A stretch of 64,000 bases of DNA from an uncultured delta proteobacterium (GTDB lineage Bacteria > Desulfobacterota > Binatia > UBA9968): NCBI GenBank assembly GCA_963847445.1, contig CAWJZV010000008.1:64001-128000 (forward strand), given 5' to 3'. Every line of letters starts with the position of its first letter. Position 1 is the first letter of the stretch. The position numbers and the translations under genes are program-made. Under the pieces are notes generated by a model. The model was not told where the DNA came from and did not search any database. It saw only the letters and a list, made by a program, of their open reading frames with translations. Positions 3,064 through 48,041 of the stretch are shown one piece after another.

Positions 3064-4595
3064 ATGAATCGGCGCCAGTTTCTTCAAACAGAGCGCGACA
3101 GTAGCGGCCGGGGCGGCGCGTTGGGCCCTATTTTTTGCGCAATGCTCAGGCCGCGTCGCGCGATCGCGTGACGATTTTTCATTCGAGCGTGGCCGATTCG
3201 ATCCATCCTTATCAACCATAGCTCGAGCCCGATTTACGGCAACTGGCAGCATGTCATCGAGCCGTTGGTCGAGTACGATGTCGGGCGCAAAGATTTCATC
3301 GGCGTGCTTGCCGAGTCGTGGCAATTCCAGGGTAACAAGTGGGTTTTCAAACTGCGCAAAGGCGTCAAATTCCACAACGGCGCGACCTTTACCTCGAAGG
3401 ATGTCGTCTTTTCGATCGACAAGATGCGCGATGAAAAGGGCGGCAGCTTGCAGGCGCCGAACTTCAAGGATGTCACGCGAGATTCAAACCCCGGACGACT
3501 ATACAGTGGTGTTTCGTGACGAAGCAGCCGAATGCGGTGTTCTTGGATCGCTTGGACAATCGTTTCATGGTCAGCAAAGAAGCGGGCGACAAGTTCGGCG
3601 ACAAGCTCTATGAGAATCTCGATCGGCACCGGTCCCTATAAATTCGTCAGCTATCAGCGCGGCGGCAATTTGGTTTTCACCCGCAACGACAATTACTGGG
3701 GCGGCAAGGCGGTGATCAAAGAAGTCATTTTCAAAAAAGTTACCGAAGACGCCGCCCGACTTGCGGCGCTGGAATCGGGCCAAGCGGATTTCATCAACAA
3801 CGTGCCGGACCATGAAGTGGCGCGCCTGAAAAACCATCCGCGCGTGCGCATCGATCAAGTCGAAGGGCTGCGAATGTTTTTTCTGGCGATCAACTTCGCG
3901 TTCAAACCCTGGGACAACAAACTGGTGCGGCAAGCGGCGAATTATGCGGTCGATGCGCCGGCGATCGTTCGCAATATCTTCGACGGCATCGGCTATCCCT
4001 GCAATGGCCCGGTGGGCGCCAACGTGTCTCGGCGCCGATCCCAAACTTAAAGCGCTACCCGTACGATCCGCAAAAAGTCCAAAGAGCTATTGGCGCAAGC
4101 CGGTTATCCCAACGGCTGCGATATTCAGTTTTACTATTCCGCCGGACGTTATCCGAAAGACCGGGAAGTCTGCCAGGTGGTCGCGGCGCAGATGGCTCAA
4201 GGGCGGTTTTCGCGTCGAGCTGATCTCCCAGGAATGGGCGCTGTTCTGGGACAAGCAGGGGGTCAACGGCGGCCGGTTGCCGTTCTACTATATCGGCCGC
4301 GGCAGTTTGGCCGACGCCGACACGCTCTATGATCAATACTTTCGCACCGGCACGACCAAGCGCACTAACTACAGCAATGCCGAACTACGACAAGCTCATC
4401 GAAGAACAGCAGCACACGCCGGACACCAAGAAGCGGGTGCAGATCTGCTACAGCGAGGCCGGCAAGTTCATCATGGACGAGGCGCTGTTCATCCCGCTTT
4501 ACAATCTCGCCGACATTTACGGCGTCGCCAGGAATCTCGATTGGAAAAAGCGCGCCGACGAAAAAGTGAAGGCGTGGGATATGAAGATCAAGTAG
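3064..4595 (+). CDS. ABC family-5 solute-binding protein, Tat signal (frameshifted)
   Basis: MNRRQFL twin-Arg; LAESW, FKLRKGVKFHNG, IGTGPYKF, DNKLVRQA. Confidence 0.85.
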
Positions 4596-4652
4596 GCTGG
4601 CTTGCACGTCGACTGAGTTGAACAATATTGCCGCGACGGCAAAGGGGGAGCG

Positions 4653-6187
4653 ATGAGTCGAACGGAAATATCAGTCGGCGAGAATTTCTCAAACACGGCG
4701 GAGTTGCCGGATTTGCCACATTACTAGGCGGCTCCATGGTCAAGCTGAGCTATGCCGCGAGCCGCGAGCGCTTGACGGCTTTGAGCAGCATCGGTCTCGA
4801 TACGCTCCATCCCTACGCCCATAGCTCGAGCCCGCAGTATGGTATCTGGCACAACATGATCGAGCCGTTGGTCGAGGTCGATTACGCCAAGCAGCATTTA
4901 TTACGGCGTGCTTGCCGAATCCTGGGAGTTTCAGGGCAAGCGTTGGGTGATCAAGCTGCGCAAGAACGTGCGCTTCCATGACAGCAGCCCGTTCACCGCC
5001 AAGGACGTCGTCTACTCGATCAACCGAATGAAGAACGACAAGCAGAGTCTGCAGAAGGAAAACTTTCGCGACTTTGTCGAAGTGCAGGCGGCCGACGATC
5101 ACACCGTGATCATCACCACCGAGCAACCGGTGGTGGTGATGCTCGACCGCCTGCAGAATCGTTTCATTCTCGCCAAGACCGGCATGGAAGCGCAGGGCGA
5201 TCAGGCGGAGTTAAAGCCGGTGGGCACGGGCCCGTACAAATTTCAAAGCTGGCAGCGCGACGGCAATCTGGTCATGGTGCGCAACGACAGCTACTGGGGC
5301 GCCAAACCGTCGATTCGAGAAATAGTTTTGCGCCGTGTGCGCGAGGACTCGGCGCGCGTCGCCGGTCTGCTCGGCCGGTCAGGGCGATGTCGCCAACAAC
5401 GTCCCGGTGGAAGAGCTGTCGCGTTTCGACAATCATCCGCGCATTCGCGCCGAGAAAGTCGAAGGCGTGCGCATGTACTTCCTCGCCATGAACGTGACTC
5501 ATAAGCCGTTCGACAACAAATTGGTCCGCCAGGCGATCAACTACGCTGTCGATCCGACGGTCATTATCAAGCATATTTACGAGGGCAACGGCTACGTCAT
5601 GAACGGGCCGATGGGTGCCAACGTGATCGGCTTCGATCCGAAGATCAAACGCTACCCGTTGGACTCAACAAGGCCAAGGAGCTGTTGACCAAGGCCGGTT
5701 TTCCGAACGGCTTCGAAATCAAGCTCTATTTCTCGCCGGATCGTTATCCGAAAGCGAAAGAAGTCTGTCAGGTGATCGCCGACCAGTTGGCCAAGGTCGG
5801 CATCAAGGCGGAGTTGGTCTCCCAAGAGTTTGTCATCTTCTGGGGTAAAGAAGGCGTCAACGGCGGCAAACTGGGTTTCTACTACGTCGGTCGGCCGGCA
5901 GCGGACGCGGATACGGTGTACGATCAGTACTATCGTTCCGGCGTGAGCCCGCGCATTCAATACAAGAATCCTGAGTTCGACAAGCTGGTTGACGAAGAGC
6001 AGAAAGACCGGCGGATGCCAAAAAAGCGCCTCGCCATGCTGCATCAGCTCGGGACGCATTCTGATGGAAGATGTGCCGTTCTGCCCGCTTTACACGCTTG
6101 GCGGAAATTTATGGCGTCGCGCGCAACATCAACTGGAAAGCCCGTCCGGACGAGAAATTACTTTATGCGGACATGAGGATTCGTTAA
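4653..6187 (+). CDS. ABC family-5 solute-binding protein, Tat signal (frameshifted)
   Basis: SRREFLK; LAESW, KLRKNVRFHD, VGTGPYKF; close paralog of both neighbours. Confidence 0.85.
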
Positions 6188-6198
6188 GAGGTTGCGTG

Positions 6199-7818
6199 AT
6201 GTCTCGAAGCCAGGAGAATCGAGCGATGAAGACAAAACCAATCGCGTTCGATCGCCGCAGATTTCTTAAGTATGGTGTGCTGGCCGGTGTCGGCGCCTTG
6301 GCCAACACCTCTGGCCCGGTTCAAGCTGGTCGGCGATCGAGGGAGCGCTTGACGATCCTCAGCAGCGTCGCCCTCGACAATCTGCATCCCTACGCGTACA
6401 GCTCCGGGCCGCAGTACGGCATCTGGTACAACATGATCGAGCCGCTGGTCGATGTCGATTTCGCCAAGCGCAGTTACTTTGGCGTGCTCGCCGAGTCCTG
6501 GGAGTTTCAGGGCAAAAAGTGGATCTTCAAGCTGCGTAAAAACGTGCGCTTCCACGACGGCGGCCGGTTTACCGCGGCCGACGTGATTTACTCGTTTAAC
6601 CGGGTGAAGAACGACAAGCAGAGCCTGCAGAAAGAAAACTTTCGCGATCTGGTCGAGATGCAAGCGCTTGACGATCATACCATCGCCTTTGTCACCGAAG
6701 CGCCCAATGCGGTGTTTCTCGACCGGCTGGAGAACCGCTTCATCATCAGCAAAAGCGCCACCGAAGCGCAGGGCGGCGAGCCCGGCGAACAGAAGCCGGT
6801 GGGCACAGGACCGTACCGCTTCGTCAGTTGGCAGCGCGAGGGCAATTTCGTCATGACCCGCCATGATAATTATTGGGGCACGAAGGCGGCCGTCAAAGAG
6901 ATCGTCATTCGCCGAGTTCGCGAGGACGCGGGGCGCGTGGCCGGCTTACTGGCCGGGCAGGGCGACGTGATCAACAATGTGCCGGTGGAAGAGCTGTCGC
7001 GTTTCGATAAGCATCCCAGGGTTAAATCGGAAAGGGTCGAAGGCCAGCGGATGTATTTCCTCGCCATGAACGTGACGCACAAACCCTTCGACAATAAATT
7101 GGTACGGCAAGCGATCAACTACGCCGTCGATCCGACGACGATCGTCAAGCATATTTACGAAGGCAACGGTTATGTGATGAACGGGCCGATGGGCTCGAAG
7201 GTGATCGGCTTCGATCCCAAGATCAAACGCTACCCGGTGGATGTGAAGAAGGGCAAAGAACTCCTCGACAAGGCGGGATATCCCAATGGCCTGGAAGTGA
7301 AACTCTACTTTTCGCCGGATCGCTATCCGAAAGCCAAGGAAGTCTGCCAAGTGATCGCCGACCAGCTCGCCAAGATCGGTGTCAAGGTCGAACTGGTATC
7401 GCAGGAGTTCGCGGTGTTTTGGGGCAAAGAGTGGGTCAATGGCGGCAAGTCGCCCTTTTACTACGTCGGCCGGCCAGCCACCGACGCCGACACCGTCTAC
7501 GATCAATACTATCGCTCCGGCGTCAGCCCGCGCATTCAATACAAGAATCCCGAGTTCGATAAAATTATCGACGAGGAGCAGCGCACCGGCGATGCCAAAA
7601 AACGTGTCGCCTTGCTGCATCAGGCCGGGCGCATCTTGATGGAAGACGTTCCGTTCGTGCCGCTCTACACGTTGGCCGAGATTTACGGCACGGCGCGCAA
7701 CGTCGGCTGGAACGCCAGGCCGGATGAGAAGATCCTCGCCGGAACGATGAAGATCCGTTTGACTGTCGCAATGTCGAGCGATTGTTTGGTTTCGATGCTT
7801 GCCCATGCGCGCAAGTGA
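6199..7818 (+). CDS. ABC family-5 solute-binding protein, Tat signal
   Basis: DRRRFLK; near-complete ORF with LAESW, KLRKNVRFHDG, VGTGPYRF. The true stop is probably TGA at ~7762, since the paralogs end MKIK/MRIR. Confidence 0.88.
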   Translation: MSRSQENRAMKTKPIAFDRRRFLKYGVLAGVGALANTSGPVQAGRRSRERLTILSSVALDNLHPYAYSSGPQYGIWYNMIEPLVDVDFAKRSYFGVLAESWEFQGKKWIFKLRKNVRFHDGGRFTAADVIYSFNRVKNDKQSLQKENFRDLVEMQALDDHTIAFVTEAPNAVFLDRLENRFIISKSATEAQGGEPGEQKPVGTGPYRFVSWQREGNFVMTRHDNYWGTKAAVKEIVIRRVREDAGRVAGLLAGQGDVINNVPVEELSRFDKHPRVKSERVEGQRMYFLAMNVTHKPFDNKLVRQAINYAVDPTTIVKHIYEGNGYVMNGPMGSKVIGFDPKIKRYPVDVKKGKELLDKAGYPNGLEVKLYFSPDRYPKAKEVCQVIADQLAKIGVKVELVSQEFAVFWGKEWVNGGKSPFYYVGRPATDADTVYDQYYRSGVSPRIQYKNPEFDKIIDEEQRTGDAKKRVALLHQAGRILMEDVPFVPLYTLAEIYGTARNVGWNARPDEKILAGTMKIRLTVAMSSDCLVSMLAHARK

Positions 7819-7947
7819 ACATTGGCCCATATGGCGTGAGTTCTAAGTACGCCGACGTTCCGACGAGATTGTTTGCCGTGCGCACAAAATTGCACGTTTC
7901 GACAACAACGATTCACAGAAAATTTGAGAATCCTTCGCACCATTCCT

Positions 7948-45043: not shown

Positions 45044-45683
45044 ATGGAGCAATCTCCCAACTCGCTCGACAAGATTATTGCCGCCCAAGCGATTCGCAAG
45101 GCCGAACGCCATTTGGCCAAAGCCGACCCGATCATGAAACGGCTAATCGCCAGGCATGGTCACTGCCCCATCGCCGAGCGCGAGTTCGAGCCGTTTCATA
45201 TGCTCGCCAACTCGATCATCAGCCAGCAGCTTTCGACTAAAAGCGGCGGCGTCGATCAAAGTTCGTGTCGGCGCTCTCGTCGGCGTGCCGTTTCAAATCG
45301 GCAAGGTGCTTTCCATCGCGCCGGCGGAATTACGCGGTGCCGGACTTTCGGGGGCAAAGACCCGTTACATCGGCGAGCTTGCGGCGCATGTCAGTGACGG
45401 CAGGTTGGACTTCGAGGAAATCTTGTTCCTCAATGACGAAGCTGCGATTGAGAAACTGGTTATAGTTCCCGGCATCGGTCGCTGGACCGCGGAGATGTTT
45501 CTGCTGTTCGGCTTGAAGCGATTGGATGTCCTCGCCATCGGTGACGCCGGGTTGCAACGAGCCGCGCGAAATCTTTACGGCAAAAAGCGCAGTTCAGCTA
45601 CATTGTTGCCGCTGGTTGCGGAAAACTGGCGGCCGTATCGGTCGATTGCGTCGTGGTATCTGTGGCGGTCTTTAGAAGACTGA
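45044..45683 (+). CDS. alkA: DNA-3-methyladenine glycosylase II (HhH-GPD), frameshifted
   Basis: IISQQLS, GLSGAK, PGIGRWTAEMFL, DVL..GD, WRPYRSIASWYLW. Confidence 0.88.
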
Positions 45684-45843
45684 AGGTTATGCCGTTTATT
45701 ACCCGTAACCTTGCATACCGAGCCCTTGAGCCCCGTCTTCTCATTGTGGGAATTTGTTACGGGTTGATTAATCAGATTACACTGTAGTAATTAGACACGT
45801 TCGCCCGTTCACAAATTACTGCCTAACCAAACTGGTGACGTTC

Positions 45844-46401
45844 ATGACTTGGCAAAATTCTGATCTAGTTGTCTACCACGGAAGTGACGAAGTATCAGCA
45901 AATCGAATACGTAAAACGTCAATGACTTCGCAAAATGGGATAGACCTTAAGCTATGTAAACCACGTACGGACTTTGGCCGAGGATTTTATACTACAACAA
46001 ATTTACACCAAGCGCGGAACTGGGCAAATCTGCGTGCGAAGAGATTAAACGCTGCGAGTGCTAACTCCGCTAGAGCAACGGTAATACAATTCAGTGTTAA
46101 GCGGGATGAATTTACTCGACTGAATACTTTGTGCTTTGTCACTGAAGGTTTGAATCCTGGGAACTCCGACTATTGGGAGTTTGTCAGTAGTTGTAGGAAC
46201 GCAACGATCTCTGACCATCAATTTAAGCCCGACCCAGCGCTTCCTGCTACGTCTAACTATGACGTGGTAATTGGGATCGTATCCTTATGGCCGCAGACGT
46301 TAGTTGTTAAGGATTGCGATCAAGTAAGCTTTCACACTCCTAAAGCAATCACGTTCCTCCTTAGTCCAACACTTATTTTAACTGGGAATCCTTATCTTTA
46401 A
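45844..46401 (+). CDS. DUF3990-like protein (ADP-ribosyltransferase-like fold)
   Basis: VYHGS, GIDLKLCKPRTDFGRGFYTTT..QA.NWA, YWEFV..CR, YDVVIG, QVSFHT. Confidence 0.8.
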   Translation: MTWQNSDLVVYHGSDEVSANRIRKTSMTSQNGIDLKLCKPRTDFGRGFYTTTNLHQARNWANLRAKRLNAASANSARATVIQFSVKRDEFTRLNTLCFVTEGLNPGNSDYWEFVSSCRNATISDHQFKPDPALPATSNYDVVIGIVSLWPQTLVVKDCDQVSFHTPKAITFLLSPTLILTGNPYL

Positions 46402-46424
46402 CCAAATTACAGGAGAACAGTAAC

Positions 46425-46700
46425 ATGCCAATAATTGATTCTTCTATTCCACCTATTCAGATCGACGAATATTGGTATGTTGTCCGAAAGACTGTGGAGG
46501 AAGTGTTTAACTGTAAGGACACCTCCGGTGTCGATAGGCTACGAACTGAAATACTTCGAAGCAAAGCGGATGAGCAGATATTGTTCTACCATGCTGAACC
46601 ATTAGACGTGGCAGCGGATCTTTCAGGCAAGTCTCCTGGAGAAGAGGAGATCAAAAAATACAATCAACTAGTTGAAAGGCATCGCAGATCGATACCATGA
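46425..46700 (+). CDS. Small helical hypothetical protein, probable partner of the DUF3990 protein
   Basis: RBS AGGAGA; begins 23 nt after the DUF3990 stop; motif LFYHAEPLDVAADL. Confidence 0.7.
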   Translation: MPIIDSSIPPIQIDEYWYVVRKTVEEVFNCKDTSGVDRLRTEILRSKADEQILFYHAEPLDVAADLSGKSPGEEEIKKYNQLVERHRRSIP

Positions 46701-46738
46701 AGGTGTTCAGCAAGGAAAACCGAGTCGTAATAAGGAAA

Positions 46739-47713
46739 CTAAAGTAAAAATTCGCTTGATTCCAAACGTTCGTCGAGGGGGAGTTCCAAAATTTCCCGCA
46801 AGAGTTCTGTTCGAAGTACATCCGACGAAGTCGTGATTGGGGCGTGAAATGCGTATCGTGTTTTTAAATAAAGAGGCAATCCTTGTTCAATACGTGACGC
46901 ACGTACCACAACCTGATACTTTGTGCTATCTGGCGGTAAATTGGCAATATCGCCCTGAATGATCATTGTTTCCCAACCTACACCTCCCAACCTCCCGTCA
47001 GCTTTCTGTTTATACGCTTCGTCGCTTACAATTATCACTTTATGCGCCAACGCCAATTCGTTGCACATCCATTGGGGAAGATCCATACCGCGTCTAAGAT
47101 TAAACTTGTCTAGCCTCGCTTGAATACCTTTGTCTATCAGAAAGAGAGCAAGTTCTTTTACCCATTCCACCGATTCTTCCGTTTTAGAGGTATGGCTTAT
47201 GAATACTCGTATCGACTCCCGAGGTTTGCCCTCGATTGTTTTTCGGATTCCTTGAATCCGATCATAAACTTCTTTGTGTAATACGTGGACGATAAGGCTC
47301 GCGCTGTTTTTCTCTATACTACCAAACCCACGATGTAGTGCTGACAGTGCCTTTTGACTCTGAATACCCCCAGCGCCCGCCCCAAGTAATGGTGCTGCAA
47401 TAGATCGAACTGACGGCTGCTCACTTGCAAACTCGCCAAGAGTCTTACCGATTAGCTCGATTGCATCGACTGTTGACGACATTCCTTCAACAGACGCTGC
47501 ATAGGCAACGAACTGTGCAATATTTTCACCGCCTTCGAAAGGTAATATTTCGACCTCCCCGAGAGCCATTCCCTCCTTCGGGTGAGGGATAGAATAATGT
47601 TCCAATGATCGGGCAACAAAACGAGTGACGGTTCCGGCGGAAGAGCATGGTAGAACGATCAAGTCGGACGGTCCATCAAAAAGATTGCCGAGTCGCACTT
47701 TTACGTACGCCAT
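46739..47713 (-). CDS. Macrodomain-SEFIR/TIR fusion protein
   Basis: N-half VRLGNLF..DLIVLPC..G...SIAAPLLGAGAGG (macro). C-half RVFISH..WV.ELA..L...GI...LD...G.DL..WM...YKQKADGRLGGVGWE (SEFIR/TIR). Confidence 0.85.
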   Translation of the reverse strand: MAYVKVRLGNLFDGPSDLIVLPCSSAGTVTRFVARSLEHYSIPHPKEGMALGEVEILPFEGGENIAQFVAYAASVEGMSSTVDAIELIGKTLGEFASEQPSVRSIAAPLLGAGAGGIQSQKALSALHRGFGSIEKNSASLIVHVLHKEVYDRIQGIRKTIEGKPRESIRVFISHTSKTEESVEWVKELALFLIDKGIQARLDKFNLRRGMDLPQWMCNELALAHKVIIVSDEAYKQKADGRLGGVGWETMIIQGDIANLPPDSTKYQVVVRASRIEQGLPLYLKTRYAFHAPITTSSDVLRTELLREILELPLDERLESSEFLL

Positions 47714-48041
47714 GCGTATACCTCGAAACTGGTTTGGTGATTATTAGCACTTGATACGGAGACATCCTTTTTGGCAACGTGTTCCGCTCGTTTCGACTAA
47801 TCCCATACCGCAAGTCCCACGGAGTACTCATCTCGTGATTCGTCATTGCCTAATGTGGTTTCAGGTTCTCTGTCTAGGCAAATCGCACGCACAAGAATTC
47901 CGAACGATTTTTCAACCTATCAGCCAGAAAATATACTAGATGCGTTGAAGATCATGCAAATATCAAAACCCCTAGAAGTGGCTTCCGGGGAAACTTCTTG
48001 TAAAGCAAGCGTAAATTTCTTTGGGAACTCGGGTTTAGTTT

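Follow-up and report, generated by a model that had tools for sequence, protein, structure and literature searches.

The 64,000-nt stretch analysed here (the window; positions 64,001 to 128,000 of contig CAWJZV010000008.1, from an uncultured delta proteobacterium) encodes a protein of 324 amino acids (aa), hereafter Macro-SEFIR, in which a diverged N-terminal macrodomain is fused to a C-terminal SEFIR domain of the TIR superfamily. The fusion is widespread and conserved and its macrodomain is cryptic; SEFIR-based defence and a general association of Macro with TIR domains were already known. We propose, at what we regard as an even chance of being right, that the protein is a single-gene defence system which depletes nicotinamide adenine dinucleotide (NAD+) and is gated by its ligand-binding macrodomain. 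Depletion of NAD+ is among the commonest bacterial answers to phage, and the way in which the NADase is silenced and released is an open question for most single-protein systems. In this large and highly conserved family the presumed regulatory module has a recognisable ligand-binding fold whose distal-ribose site is remodelled, so that the trigger should be directly testable with few candidate ligands.

Two domains in one chain

The reading frame proposed by an initial annotation, which had been made from the sequence alone, was confirmed at precisely 46739-47713 of the minus strand, encoding 324 aa, and all the motifs that the annotation quoted are present: G9-N10-L11-F12, L21-P22-C23-S24-S25, S104-IAAPLLGAGAGG-G116 and G243-GVGWE-E248 (residues 104-116 of the protein read SIAAPLLGAGAGG). 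The gene occurs in a single copy in the 7.19-Mb genome. It is a real gene rather than a chance open reading frame (ORF), because 1110 homologues were retrieved at E ≤ 0.001 among protein clusters at 90% identity and those listed are of near-constant length (the 120 listed are 324-341 aa long and 66-100% identical). The annotation was therefore wrong in calling the fusion unusual, since these 1110 clusters represent a large and widespread family.

Three independent lines (structure, sequence profile and relatives) identify residues 1-165 as a diverged macrodomain. First, in the AlphaFold2 (AF2) model built from an 18-sequence alignment (mean predicted local distance difference test, pLDDT, 77.1; predicted template modelling score, pTM, 0.56; 10-residue blocks over residues 1-160 with pLDDT 73-95), residues 1-165 fold as a macrodomain. 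Foldseek matched the model to TTHA0132 (2dx6) with E = 3.7e-6 and a target template modelling score of 0.75, and to DarG, alphavirus and macroH2A macrodomains with scores of about 0.6-0.73; superposition of model residues 1-165 on about 50 macrodomain entries with VIA-align gave Z-scores of 14.6-16.9 and root-mean-square deviations of 2.4-3.9 A over 139-160 residues. Second, a profile of 15 diverse N-domains matched 2dx6 at positions 3-133 (E = 2.5e-6). Third, distant Macro-SEFIR members exceed the Pfam Macro (PF01661) cut-off of 22 bits (P0161, 32.3; P0165, 24.2; P0159, 22.7), whereas the window protein itself stays below it (12.9-14.2 bits). The features expected of the superfamily, namely a three-layer alpha/beta/alpha fold, profile similarity and a G-x-G-x-x-G loop 2, are thus all found. 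Matches to DarG models were confined to residues 98-135 (E = 0.02-0.1). In the ESM Atlas, residues 1-160 matched unnamed clusters best (0.89-0.90) and a single Macro cluster slightly less well (0.88), matches that serve as leads only. The precomputed Pfam fields of the 120 homologues listed name SEFIR and TIR_2 only; since the macrodomain of the core clade thus escapes annotation, architecture searches under-count Macro-NADase fusions.

The top 50 VIA-align rows were tied over viral, MacroD, macroH2A, YmdB, PARP and DarG macrodomains, and assignment to a macro subclass on structural grounds was ruled out by these tied scores. Weak hidden Markov model (HMM) matches of the N-domain family members were split evenly between ThsA-Macro (4 of 15; best E = 0.00098) and DarG (4 of 15; best E = 0.0025). 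Consequently, the label 'DarG-like' given to this half by the annotation is unspecific. Matches described as 'designed serine hydrolase' correspond, judging from their sequences and titles, to engineered TTHA0132 or Af1521 scaffolds.

Comparison of motifs was more informative as to function. In MacroD-type macrodomains the Asn residues of VNAAN and the Gly-rich loop 1 serve hydrolysis, and a Lys does so in the TARG1/DarG type. In the HMM alignment to TTHA0132, L21 and S24 stand where both Asn of DAIVNAAN sit (DLIVLPCS in our protein), and the Gly-rich loop 1 (LGAGVAG) lies opposite VT(R)FVA(R), being replaced by T30-x-F32-V33; the annotation had rightly noticed the replacement of the usual Asn. 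No Asn occupies the VNAAN columns in any of 24 relatives, nor do residues 1-156 contain a Lys that is shared by all 18 close relatives. The diphosphate loop is kept (FPLLGTGVGG of 2dx6 opposite APLLGAGAGG, with equivalent loops in alphavirus and DarG macrodomains), GDIT is aligned with GNLF, and 13 of the 15 diverse N-domains carry D or N at position 10. Residues invariant in the N-domains of all 24 relatives, down to 26% identity, are G9, P22, P108, G111, G113 and G115; D17 is nearly invariant in the same set, and C23 is invariant in the closer clade and V, I, A or S in some distant relatives. The protein thus lacks what characterizes MacroD/Af1521 hydrolases (the VNAAN Asn and Gly-rich loop 1) as well as what characterizes DarG/TARG1 (the Lys, the model score and a DarT partner). 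Because the adenine and diphosphate contacts are kept and the distal-ribose site is remodelled (both Asn and loop 1 being lost, with no conserved Lys), the macro module is, from these alignments, more likely to be a binder than a classical hydrolase, as the annotation had hinted from the Asn; the lost Asn and Gly-rich loop 1 favour binding over MacroD-type hydrolysis.

Alternatively, the macrodomain might be an enzyme with a non-canonical active site, which would process the SEFIR/TIR product or a related signal in a two-step pathway, for example by making ADP-ribose (ADPR) unusable for NAD+ reconstitution by the phage or by destroying stray signal and so setting an activation threshold. A number of polar residues are strictly conserved in the macro half of close relatives (D13, D17, C23, T30, R35, Q67, S74, H146 and R152), the domain is found alone on EAD1 and EAD5 (see below), where enzymatic effectors are expected (PMC7159879), and targeting of cyclic ADPR (cADPR) by Macro domains of TIR systems has been predicted (PMC9503650). 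However, both VNAAN Asn and the Gly-rich loop 1 are replaced, there is no conserved Lys, the residues invariant in the 24 diverse members are only structural or phosphate-binding, and C23 varies; we therefore hold catalysis by this domain to be unlikely.

The SEFIR half was recognized more readily. The Pfam models SEFIR and TIR_2 both score above threshold, with 42.3 bits (cut-off 23) and 35.1 bits (cut-off 28), respectively, the PADLOC model bSEFIR (PDLC03957) matches residues 162-316 over its positions 37-188 of 412 (E = 1.2e-35), and a profile of 18 relatives matches the Bacillus cereus SEFIR structure (BcSEFIR, Protein Data Bank entry 5y8e) with E = 3.9e-23; the domain is thus homologous to the validated bSEFIR. 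In the 5y8e alignment GGVGWETMII lies opposite GGVGTETMII. E248 is invariant in the 18 close relatives, and at least 90% of 24 diverse ones retain it, canonical TIR_2-fused forms included. It supplies the conserved Glu after strand C that is characteristic of TIR-superfamily NADases and is, by its position, presumably the catalytic Glu of this half. Strand B ends with D202, which all 24 sequences share and which is aligned to an Asp of BcSEFIR; it may correspond to D40, mutation of which abolished defence in Millman et al. The central assertion of the annotation, that one chain combines an N-terminal macrodomain with a C-terminal SEFIR/TIR-superfamily domain carrying a conserved Glu, was thus borne out by models, profiles and structure. 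Mean column identity across phyla is 0.77 for the macro part, 0.53 for the linker and 0.86 for the SEFIR core, and hence both domains are strongly constrained. The features of the gene and of its surroundings are listed in Table 1.

Table 1. Features of the Macro-SEFIR gene and of the insert that carries it (window coordinates)
Feature	Position	Strand	Basis
Macro-SEFIR gene, 324 codons + stop	46739..47713	-	ORF list, homologues, single copy in genome
GAGG Shine-Dalgarno / ribosome-binding site, 7 nt 5' of ATG	47721..47724	-	from sequence directly
Diverged macrodomain, residues 1-160	47234..47713	-	AF2 model, Foldseek, VIA-align, N-domain profile, Pfam-passing relatives
L21-P22-C23-S24, replacing catalytic VNAAN of MacroD-type macrodomains	47642..47653	-	HMM alignment to TTHA0132
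P108-LLGAGAGG-G116, phosphate-binding loop 2, kept	47366..47392	-	aligned with 2dx6, alphavirus and DarG loops
Variable linker, residues 161-168	47210..47233	-	low column identity, lower pLDDT
SEFIR (TIR-superfamily) domain, residues 169-300, presumed NADase	46814..47209	-	Pfam SEFIR/TIR_2, PADLOC bSEFIR, 5y8e
G243-GVGW-E248 with presumed catalytic Glu	46970..46987	-	conservation; aligned to GGVGTE of BcSEFIR
2.36-kb low-GC insert: Macro-SEFIR gene, DUF3990 gene, 91-aa ORF	45684..48041	.	GC drop; without match in 20 relatives

Family, fusion partners and genomic neighbours

In a library of 50%-identity representatives, 3675 sequences matched at E ≤ 0.001, 86 of them even at E ≤ 1e-30. Lineages among the homologues listed include (names as given by the sources) Geobacter, Paraburkholderia, Mesorhizobium, Pseudolysobacter, Collimonas, Caldilineaceae and Thiodiazotropha, and identity to proteins of distant, unrelated phyla amounts to 66-74%. 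The best 150 representatives at 50% identity were sorted with HMMs of the two halves: 71 contain macro and SEFIR, 32 contain macro and at least 100 aa of other sequence, 28 contain macro and little else (many of them are probably fragments) and 19 are SEFIR-only or N-terminally short.

Thirty-one of the 32 proteins with macro and another part were scanned with Pfam (P0256 was left out). The partners were (i) TIR_2/TIR in 11 proteins, plus one weak match, (ii) a CAP12/Pycsar-type (CAP12-PCTIR) TIR domain in 3, plus one weak match, with the order reversed so that the macro domain is C-terminal, (iii) TIR_2 with an Mrr nuclease in 1, (iv) DUF4062, reported as a NADase (10.64898/2026.09.04.749371), in 1 and (v) single cases of EAD1, EAD5, protein kinase with GGDEF, HTH with KAP NTPase (P0213), DUF2203, a carboxypeptidase-regulatory-like domain and PD40 repeats; no partner was recognized in 6. 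The protein kinase and GGDEF are found in P0176 (880 aa), which carries the same macro domain at its C-terminus. In a quick maximum-likelihood tree of 108 N-domains, with SH-aLRT support, partners are intermixed: P0210 (TIR_2) groups with P0211 and P0188 (SEFIR), and P0252 (TIR_2) with P0183 (SEFIR). Since the TIR_2 label requires at least 6 changes on well-supported branches, the NADase partner was swapped repeatedly. Domain assignments and this tree thus show that the macro subfamily has been joined repeatedly, and in either order, to different NAD-cleaving domains, which points to chemistry (NAD+ and ADPR), rather than to one fixed protein-protein fit, as the link between macro and its NADase partners. 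The pairing of this subfamily with SEFIR, TIR_2, CAP12-TIR and DUF4062 suggests a general rule by which ADPR sensing is linked to NAD+ cleavage.

Genomic surroundings were scanned in one genome per species, which gave 76 loci, 69 of them covering both domains; all ORFs with a length of 70 aa or more at the 76 loci and in the window (2735 in total) were then clustered. No conserved neighbour of the Macro-SEFIR gene was found by this clustering in the 76 loci. Among the remaining clusters, the two largest (30 and 21 loci) were rejected as partners, being antisense shadow ORFs inside the gene itself, and so was the third (8 loci), which consists of ABC-type ATPases at varying positions. Neither the DUF3990 protein nor the 91-aa ORF of the window recurs at the other 76 loci. 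Given that no neighbour is conserved and that a single longer fused form was found, Macro-SEFIR is, on this comparison of loci, a one-gene unit. That longer form is P0270 (637 aa), in which Macro-SEFIR is joined to an AAA ATPase; P0122 (421 aa; 53% identical) has EAD7 ahead of the Macro-SEFIR dyad.

Such extended forms would fit another explanation, in which the dyad is an effector cassette in need of a separate sensor (e.g. the NTPase of EAD-linked conflict systems) and the window copy is an orphan or acts in dependence on a partner in trans. Besides P0122 and P0270, the macro domain with HTH and KAP NTPase of P0213 speaks for it. Nevertheless, extended forms are rare, the 120 best 90%-identity clusters all falling within 324-341 aa, no neighbour is conserved in the 76 loci, and the stand-alone form is so strongly conserved between phyla as to argue for an autonomous function, so that we consider a cassette of this kind improbable.

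Defence genes in the vicinity were sought by running PADLOC on flanking ORFs of at least 150 aa, and this covered 38 of 43 loci with full 5-kb flanks (L058 in part; 5 loci left out). A PADLOC match at E ≤ 1e-10 was obtained at 14 of the 38, 4 of these being generic (ABC-ATPase-like mad3/AriA at L018, L050 and L055; subtilase at L056), which gives about 10 of 38 loci with a plausible defence gene within 5 kb: a ThsB-like TIR with an HNH effector (L003), a PN-superfamily effector (L005), mad2 (L017), WYL (L019), TIR genes on either side (L022), HEC-06/Orf5-like (L026), LmuA-like (L034), restriction-modification genes (L035), ThsB with SIR2 (L046) and a second SEFIR protein (L049). The association of Macro-SEFIR loci with defence neighbours is suggestive.

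Two of these loci may be described further. In Rhodoplanes elegans (L049) a 402-aa protein is encoded directly 3' of the Macro-SEFIR gene (6646-7851, plus strand; bSEFIR, 4.7e-47), and its SEFIR domain is likewise C-terminal (residues 241-399), after about 240 uncharacterized residues. In Marinicella sp. W31 (L022) a small TIR cluster is seen, in which two TIR-type genes (4409-4951 and 6098-6994, both on the plus strand) bracket the Macro-SEFIR gene and match a ThsB-like model (3.7e-10) and a TIR effector model (1.1e-11).

Known systems and proposed mechanism

SEFIR has been described as a single-protein defence in which NAD+ is depleted to ADPR and nicotinamide (10.1101/2024.02.11.579819, 10.64898/2026.01.28.702374), and defence by the bSEFIR of Bacillus sp. 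NIO-1130 was reported by Millman et al. (10.1101/2022.05.11.491447), whose methods give an N-terminal SEFIR domain as the selection rule. Our protein belongs to the same SEFIR family, is likewise the product of a single gene and has the GGVGxE motif in common with BcSEFIR. The architecture differs: in bSEFIR the SEFIR domain is N-terminal and is followed by about 220 model positions unmatched here, so that the C-terminal two-fifths of the PADLOC model have no counterpart, whereas here a macrodomain precedes SEFIR. By analogy the protein would work like bSEFIR, but it is not a canonical member.

In type II Thoeris (TIR protein ThsB, Macro membrane effector ThsA, His-ADPR signal) a TIR-superfamily domain is also paired with a macrodomain, which resides on ThsA, reads the TIR-made ADPR conjugate, and is described as binding rather than hydrolysing this ADPR derivative (PMC7272460, 10.64898/2025.12.03.692087); the statement in the annotation that the Macro domain is carried there by a separate effector agrees with both sources. 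The domains that are split in Thoeris are fused here, with neither a separate effector nor a conserved neighbour, and PADLOC detected no ThsA match for the window protein at E ≤ 1. Identity with type II Thoeris was ruled out by the single fused gene and the absence of a conserved neighbour in the 76 loci.

Among macrodomains, TTHA0132 (2dx6), Af1521 and the MacroD type provide the best profile match and top structural matches (Z = 15.7-16.2), and they have the GD/N-hydrophobic start and phosphate loop 2 in common with our protein, but differ from it in both DAIVNAAN Asn and the Gly-rich loop 1. DarG resembles it in the macro fold (Z = 14.6-14.8) and the GNL start; however, its NCBIfam model gives 11.9 bits against a cut-off of 250, its Lys has no conserved counterpart here, and no DarT partner is present, the adjoining DUF3990 gene not co-occurring with the family. 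Identity with DarG was ruled out by this score and by the missing Lys and DarT partner.

Macro domains of prokaryotic conflict systems were listed by Kaur, Burroughs, Iyer & Aravind among effector domains possibly acting on ADP-ribose or NAD+ (PMC7159879), and Iyer et al. (Aravind's group) predicted that they regulate TIR systems by targeting cADPR (PMC9503650); the subfamily studied here is likewise found on EAD1, EAD5 and EAD7 and beside TIR. The accessible parts of these two papers name the Macro theme in general terms and do not describe the 325-aa Macro-SEFIR family. In the literature searched, which did not extend to supplementary tables, no description of a Macro-SEFIR fusion was found.

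On this basis, the mechanism that we favour may be outlined as follows. The C-terminal SEFIR domain would be the effector and would, by homology, convert NAD+ into ADPR and nicotinamide by means of E248, probably after self-association. The N-terminal macrodomain would be a non-hydrolytic ligand-binding module taking the role of the C-terminal sensor region of canonical bSEFIR, and would gate the NADase on binding its probable ligand, which may be ADPR or a derivative or conjugate of it; in type II Thoeris there is already an example of a macrodomain reading an ADPR conjugate that a TIR protein has made. The NADase and defence parts of this reading are supported by the strong SEFIR homology, the conserved E248 and D202 and the NAD+ depletion reported for SEFIR. 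Further points in favour of the whole are the kept macro fold and phosphate loop 2 together with the lost Asn and loop 1, the constraint on both domains, the partner swaps among NAD-cleaving domains, the one-gene organization, the patchy distribution and the plausible defence genes near about 10 of 38 loci.

Several observations weigh against it. A nearby defence gene is missing at 28 of the 38 loci and, as there is no control set, the association is only suggestive; in addition, the island of the window is surrounded by metabolic genes and is not a defence island. The inter-domain geometry of the AF2 model is uncertain (pTM 0.56) and its GGVGWE loop has pLDDT below 50. As bSEFIR was defined with an N-terminal SEFIR domain, function is being carried over between architectures. 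The many conserved polar residues of the macro half could equally well form an unconventional catalytic site. Finally, the macro domain alone is found on EAD1 and EAD5, and the whole dyad on EAD7, which suggests that the macrodomain may be part of an effector module and not a phage sensor. Because the EAD-linked forms argue that the dyad is usable as a pure effector cassette, a role of the macrodomain as the primary phage sensor is weakened, and these forms favour a function coupled directly to the NADase reaction, which could be to sense its product or a signal, to activate it by feed-forward or to set a threshold.

A narrower version of the gated-NADase proposal, which is possible although we doubt it, would make the protein a Thoeris-like switch in a single chain, with a macrodomain that reads an ADPR-type product of NAD cleavage and a protein that serves as a second-line amplifier or guard. 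Were the ligand supplied by neighbouring protomers, feed-forward would result in an all-or-none collapse of NAD+; it might also come from other NADase defences, phage ADP-ribosyltransferases or intermediates of NAD+ reconstitution. If this is true, the repeated and independent pairing of the macro subfamily with four types of NAD-cleaving domain would be the genomic trace of product or signal sensing.

The low-GC insert

The insert listed in Table 1 (approximately 45684-48041) has a GC content of 0.44-0.46 compared with about 0.6 in its flanks, and its borders are the stop codons of two convergent core genes, one HhH-GPD glycosylase-like and the other for enoyl-CoA hydratase. Both flanks are present in 12 genomes of the same genus, at 78-96% DNA identity up to the two stop codons. 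The insert itself had no match in any of the 20 same-genus and same-order genomes searched (one of these, G005, is unpublished, and the result does not hinge on it). Of 400 further genomes sampled evenly from the phylum, one carried a full-length copy (G070, 54% identity) and 4 gave SEFIR-only matches. Being patchy in relatives and in the phylum, and 66-74% identical to proteins of unrelated phyla, the gene thus bears the marks of horizontal transfer, which indicates a recent acquisition. The same intergenic spot is variable in the genus (compared at L084-L089, in G003, G004 and G006-G009), the gap ranging from about 295 bp (G006) to about 3.1 kb; its other cargo, named from translations only, comprises solute-binding proteins, isochorismatase-like and methyltransferase-like genes and a PIN-like ORF (G009).

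Such patchiness (0 of 20 relatives, 1 of 400 phylum genomes) is typical of defence genes and hence favours a defence role. Could the protein be a non-immune one instead, either a housekeeping or stress regulator of NAD+/ADPR or a toxin-like growth-arrest element of a selfish island? The 28 loci with no PADLOC-recognizable defence gene within 5 kb and the metabolic genes that flank the island would agree with this, and neither plasmids (0 of 130 matches in 72,556 plasmids cover at least 80% of the protein, all being SEFIR-only) nor phage records (0 of 2 matches in 50,697 records, again SEFIR-only) yielded a full-length copy. However, the patchy distribution and the high identity across phyla do not suit a housekeeping gene, and the closest characterized relatives are defence proteins, so we judge a non-immune function to be improbable too.

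The other two genes of the insert lie on the plus strand. The DUF3990 gene (45835-46401; Pfam, 4.7e-15) matches the PADLOC candidates PDC-M13B (4.3e-16) and PDC-M13A (6.5e-14), and its product has a weak ART-PolyVal match (E = 0.15). An ORF of 91 aa (46425-46700), which has no family match, follows 24 bp 3' of it. The 91-aa ORF is separated by 38 bp from the Macro-SEFIR stop codon, the DUF3990 and Macro-SEFIR genes being convergent. The DUF3990 gene and the 91-aa ORF may form a separate two-gene pair, a candidate defence or toxin-antitoxin system.

In principle, the macrodomain might be the antidote to the adjoining DUF3990 protein, in a toxin-antitoxin arrangement resembling DarT-DarG. The presence of the DUF3990 gene in the same insert, with its ART-PolyVal and PDC-M13A/PDC-M13B matches, would allow for this. 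Yet homologues of DUF3990 clustered with no ORF of the 76 other loci, the NCBIfam DarG score (given above) is far below its cut-off, and convergent genes do not make one operon; a role as antidote is thus very improbable, and a DarTG-like link to DUF3990 was rejected because no DUF3990 homologue stands beside the gene at any of the 76 other family loci.

As to the mode of insertion, no tRNA gene was found in the window, nor were direct repeats of 14 nt or more found on either side of the insert. The repeats seen near it (one 15-nt two-copy pair and two 16-nt inverted pairs) look like chance; in one of the latter (46580-46595 and 47644-47659; 94% complementary, 1048 nt apart; probably chance) one arm falls within the 91-aa ORF and the other within the Macro-SEFIR gene, towards its 5' end. 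Promoter- and terminator-like sites around the insert were no commoner than in shuffled sequences. To the left of the insert, the HhH-GPD glycosylase-like gene (45044-45683, plus strand) is spread over two frames that overlap, one of 117 aa (45044-45397) and one of 175 aa (45156-45683; Pfam HhH-GPD, 8.7e-07), which suggests that the frame shifts, or the assembly is wrong, near 45230-45260.

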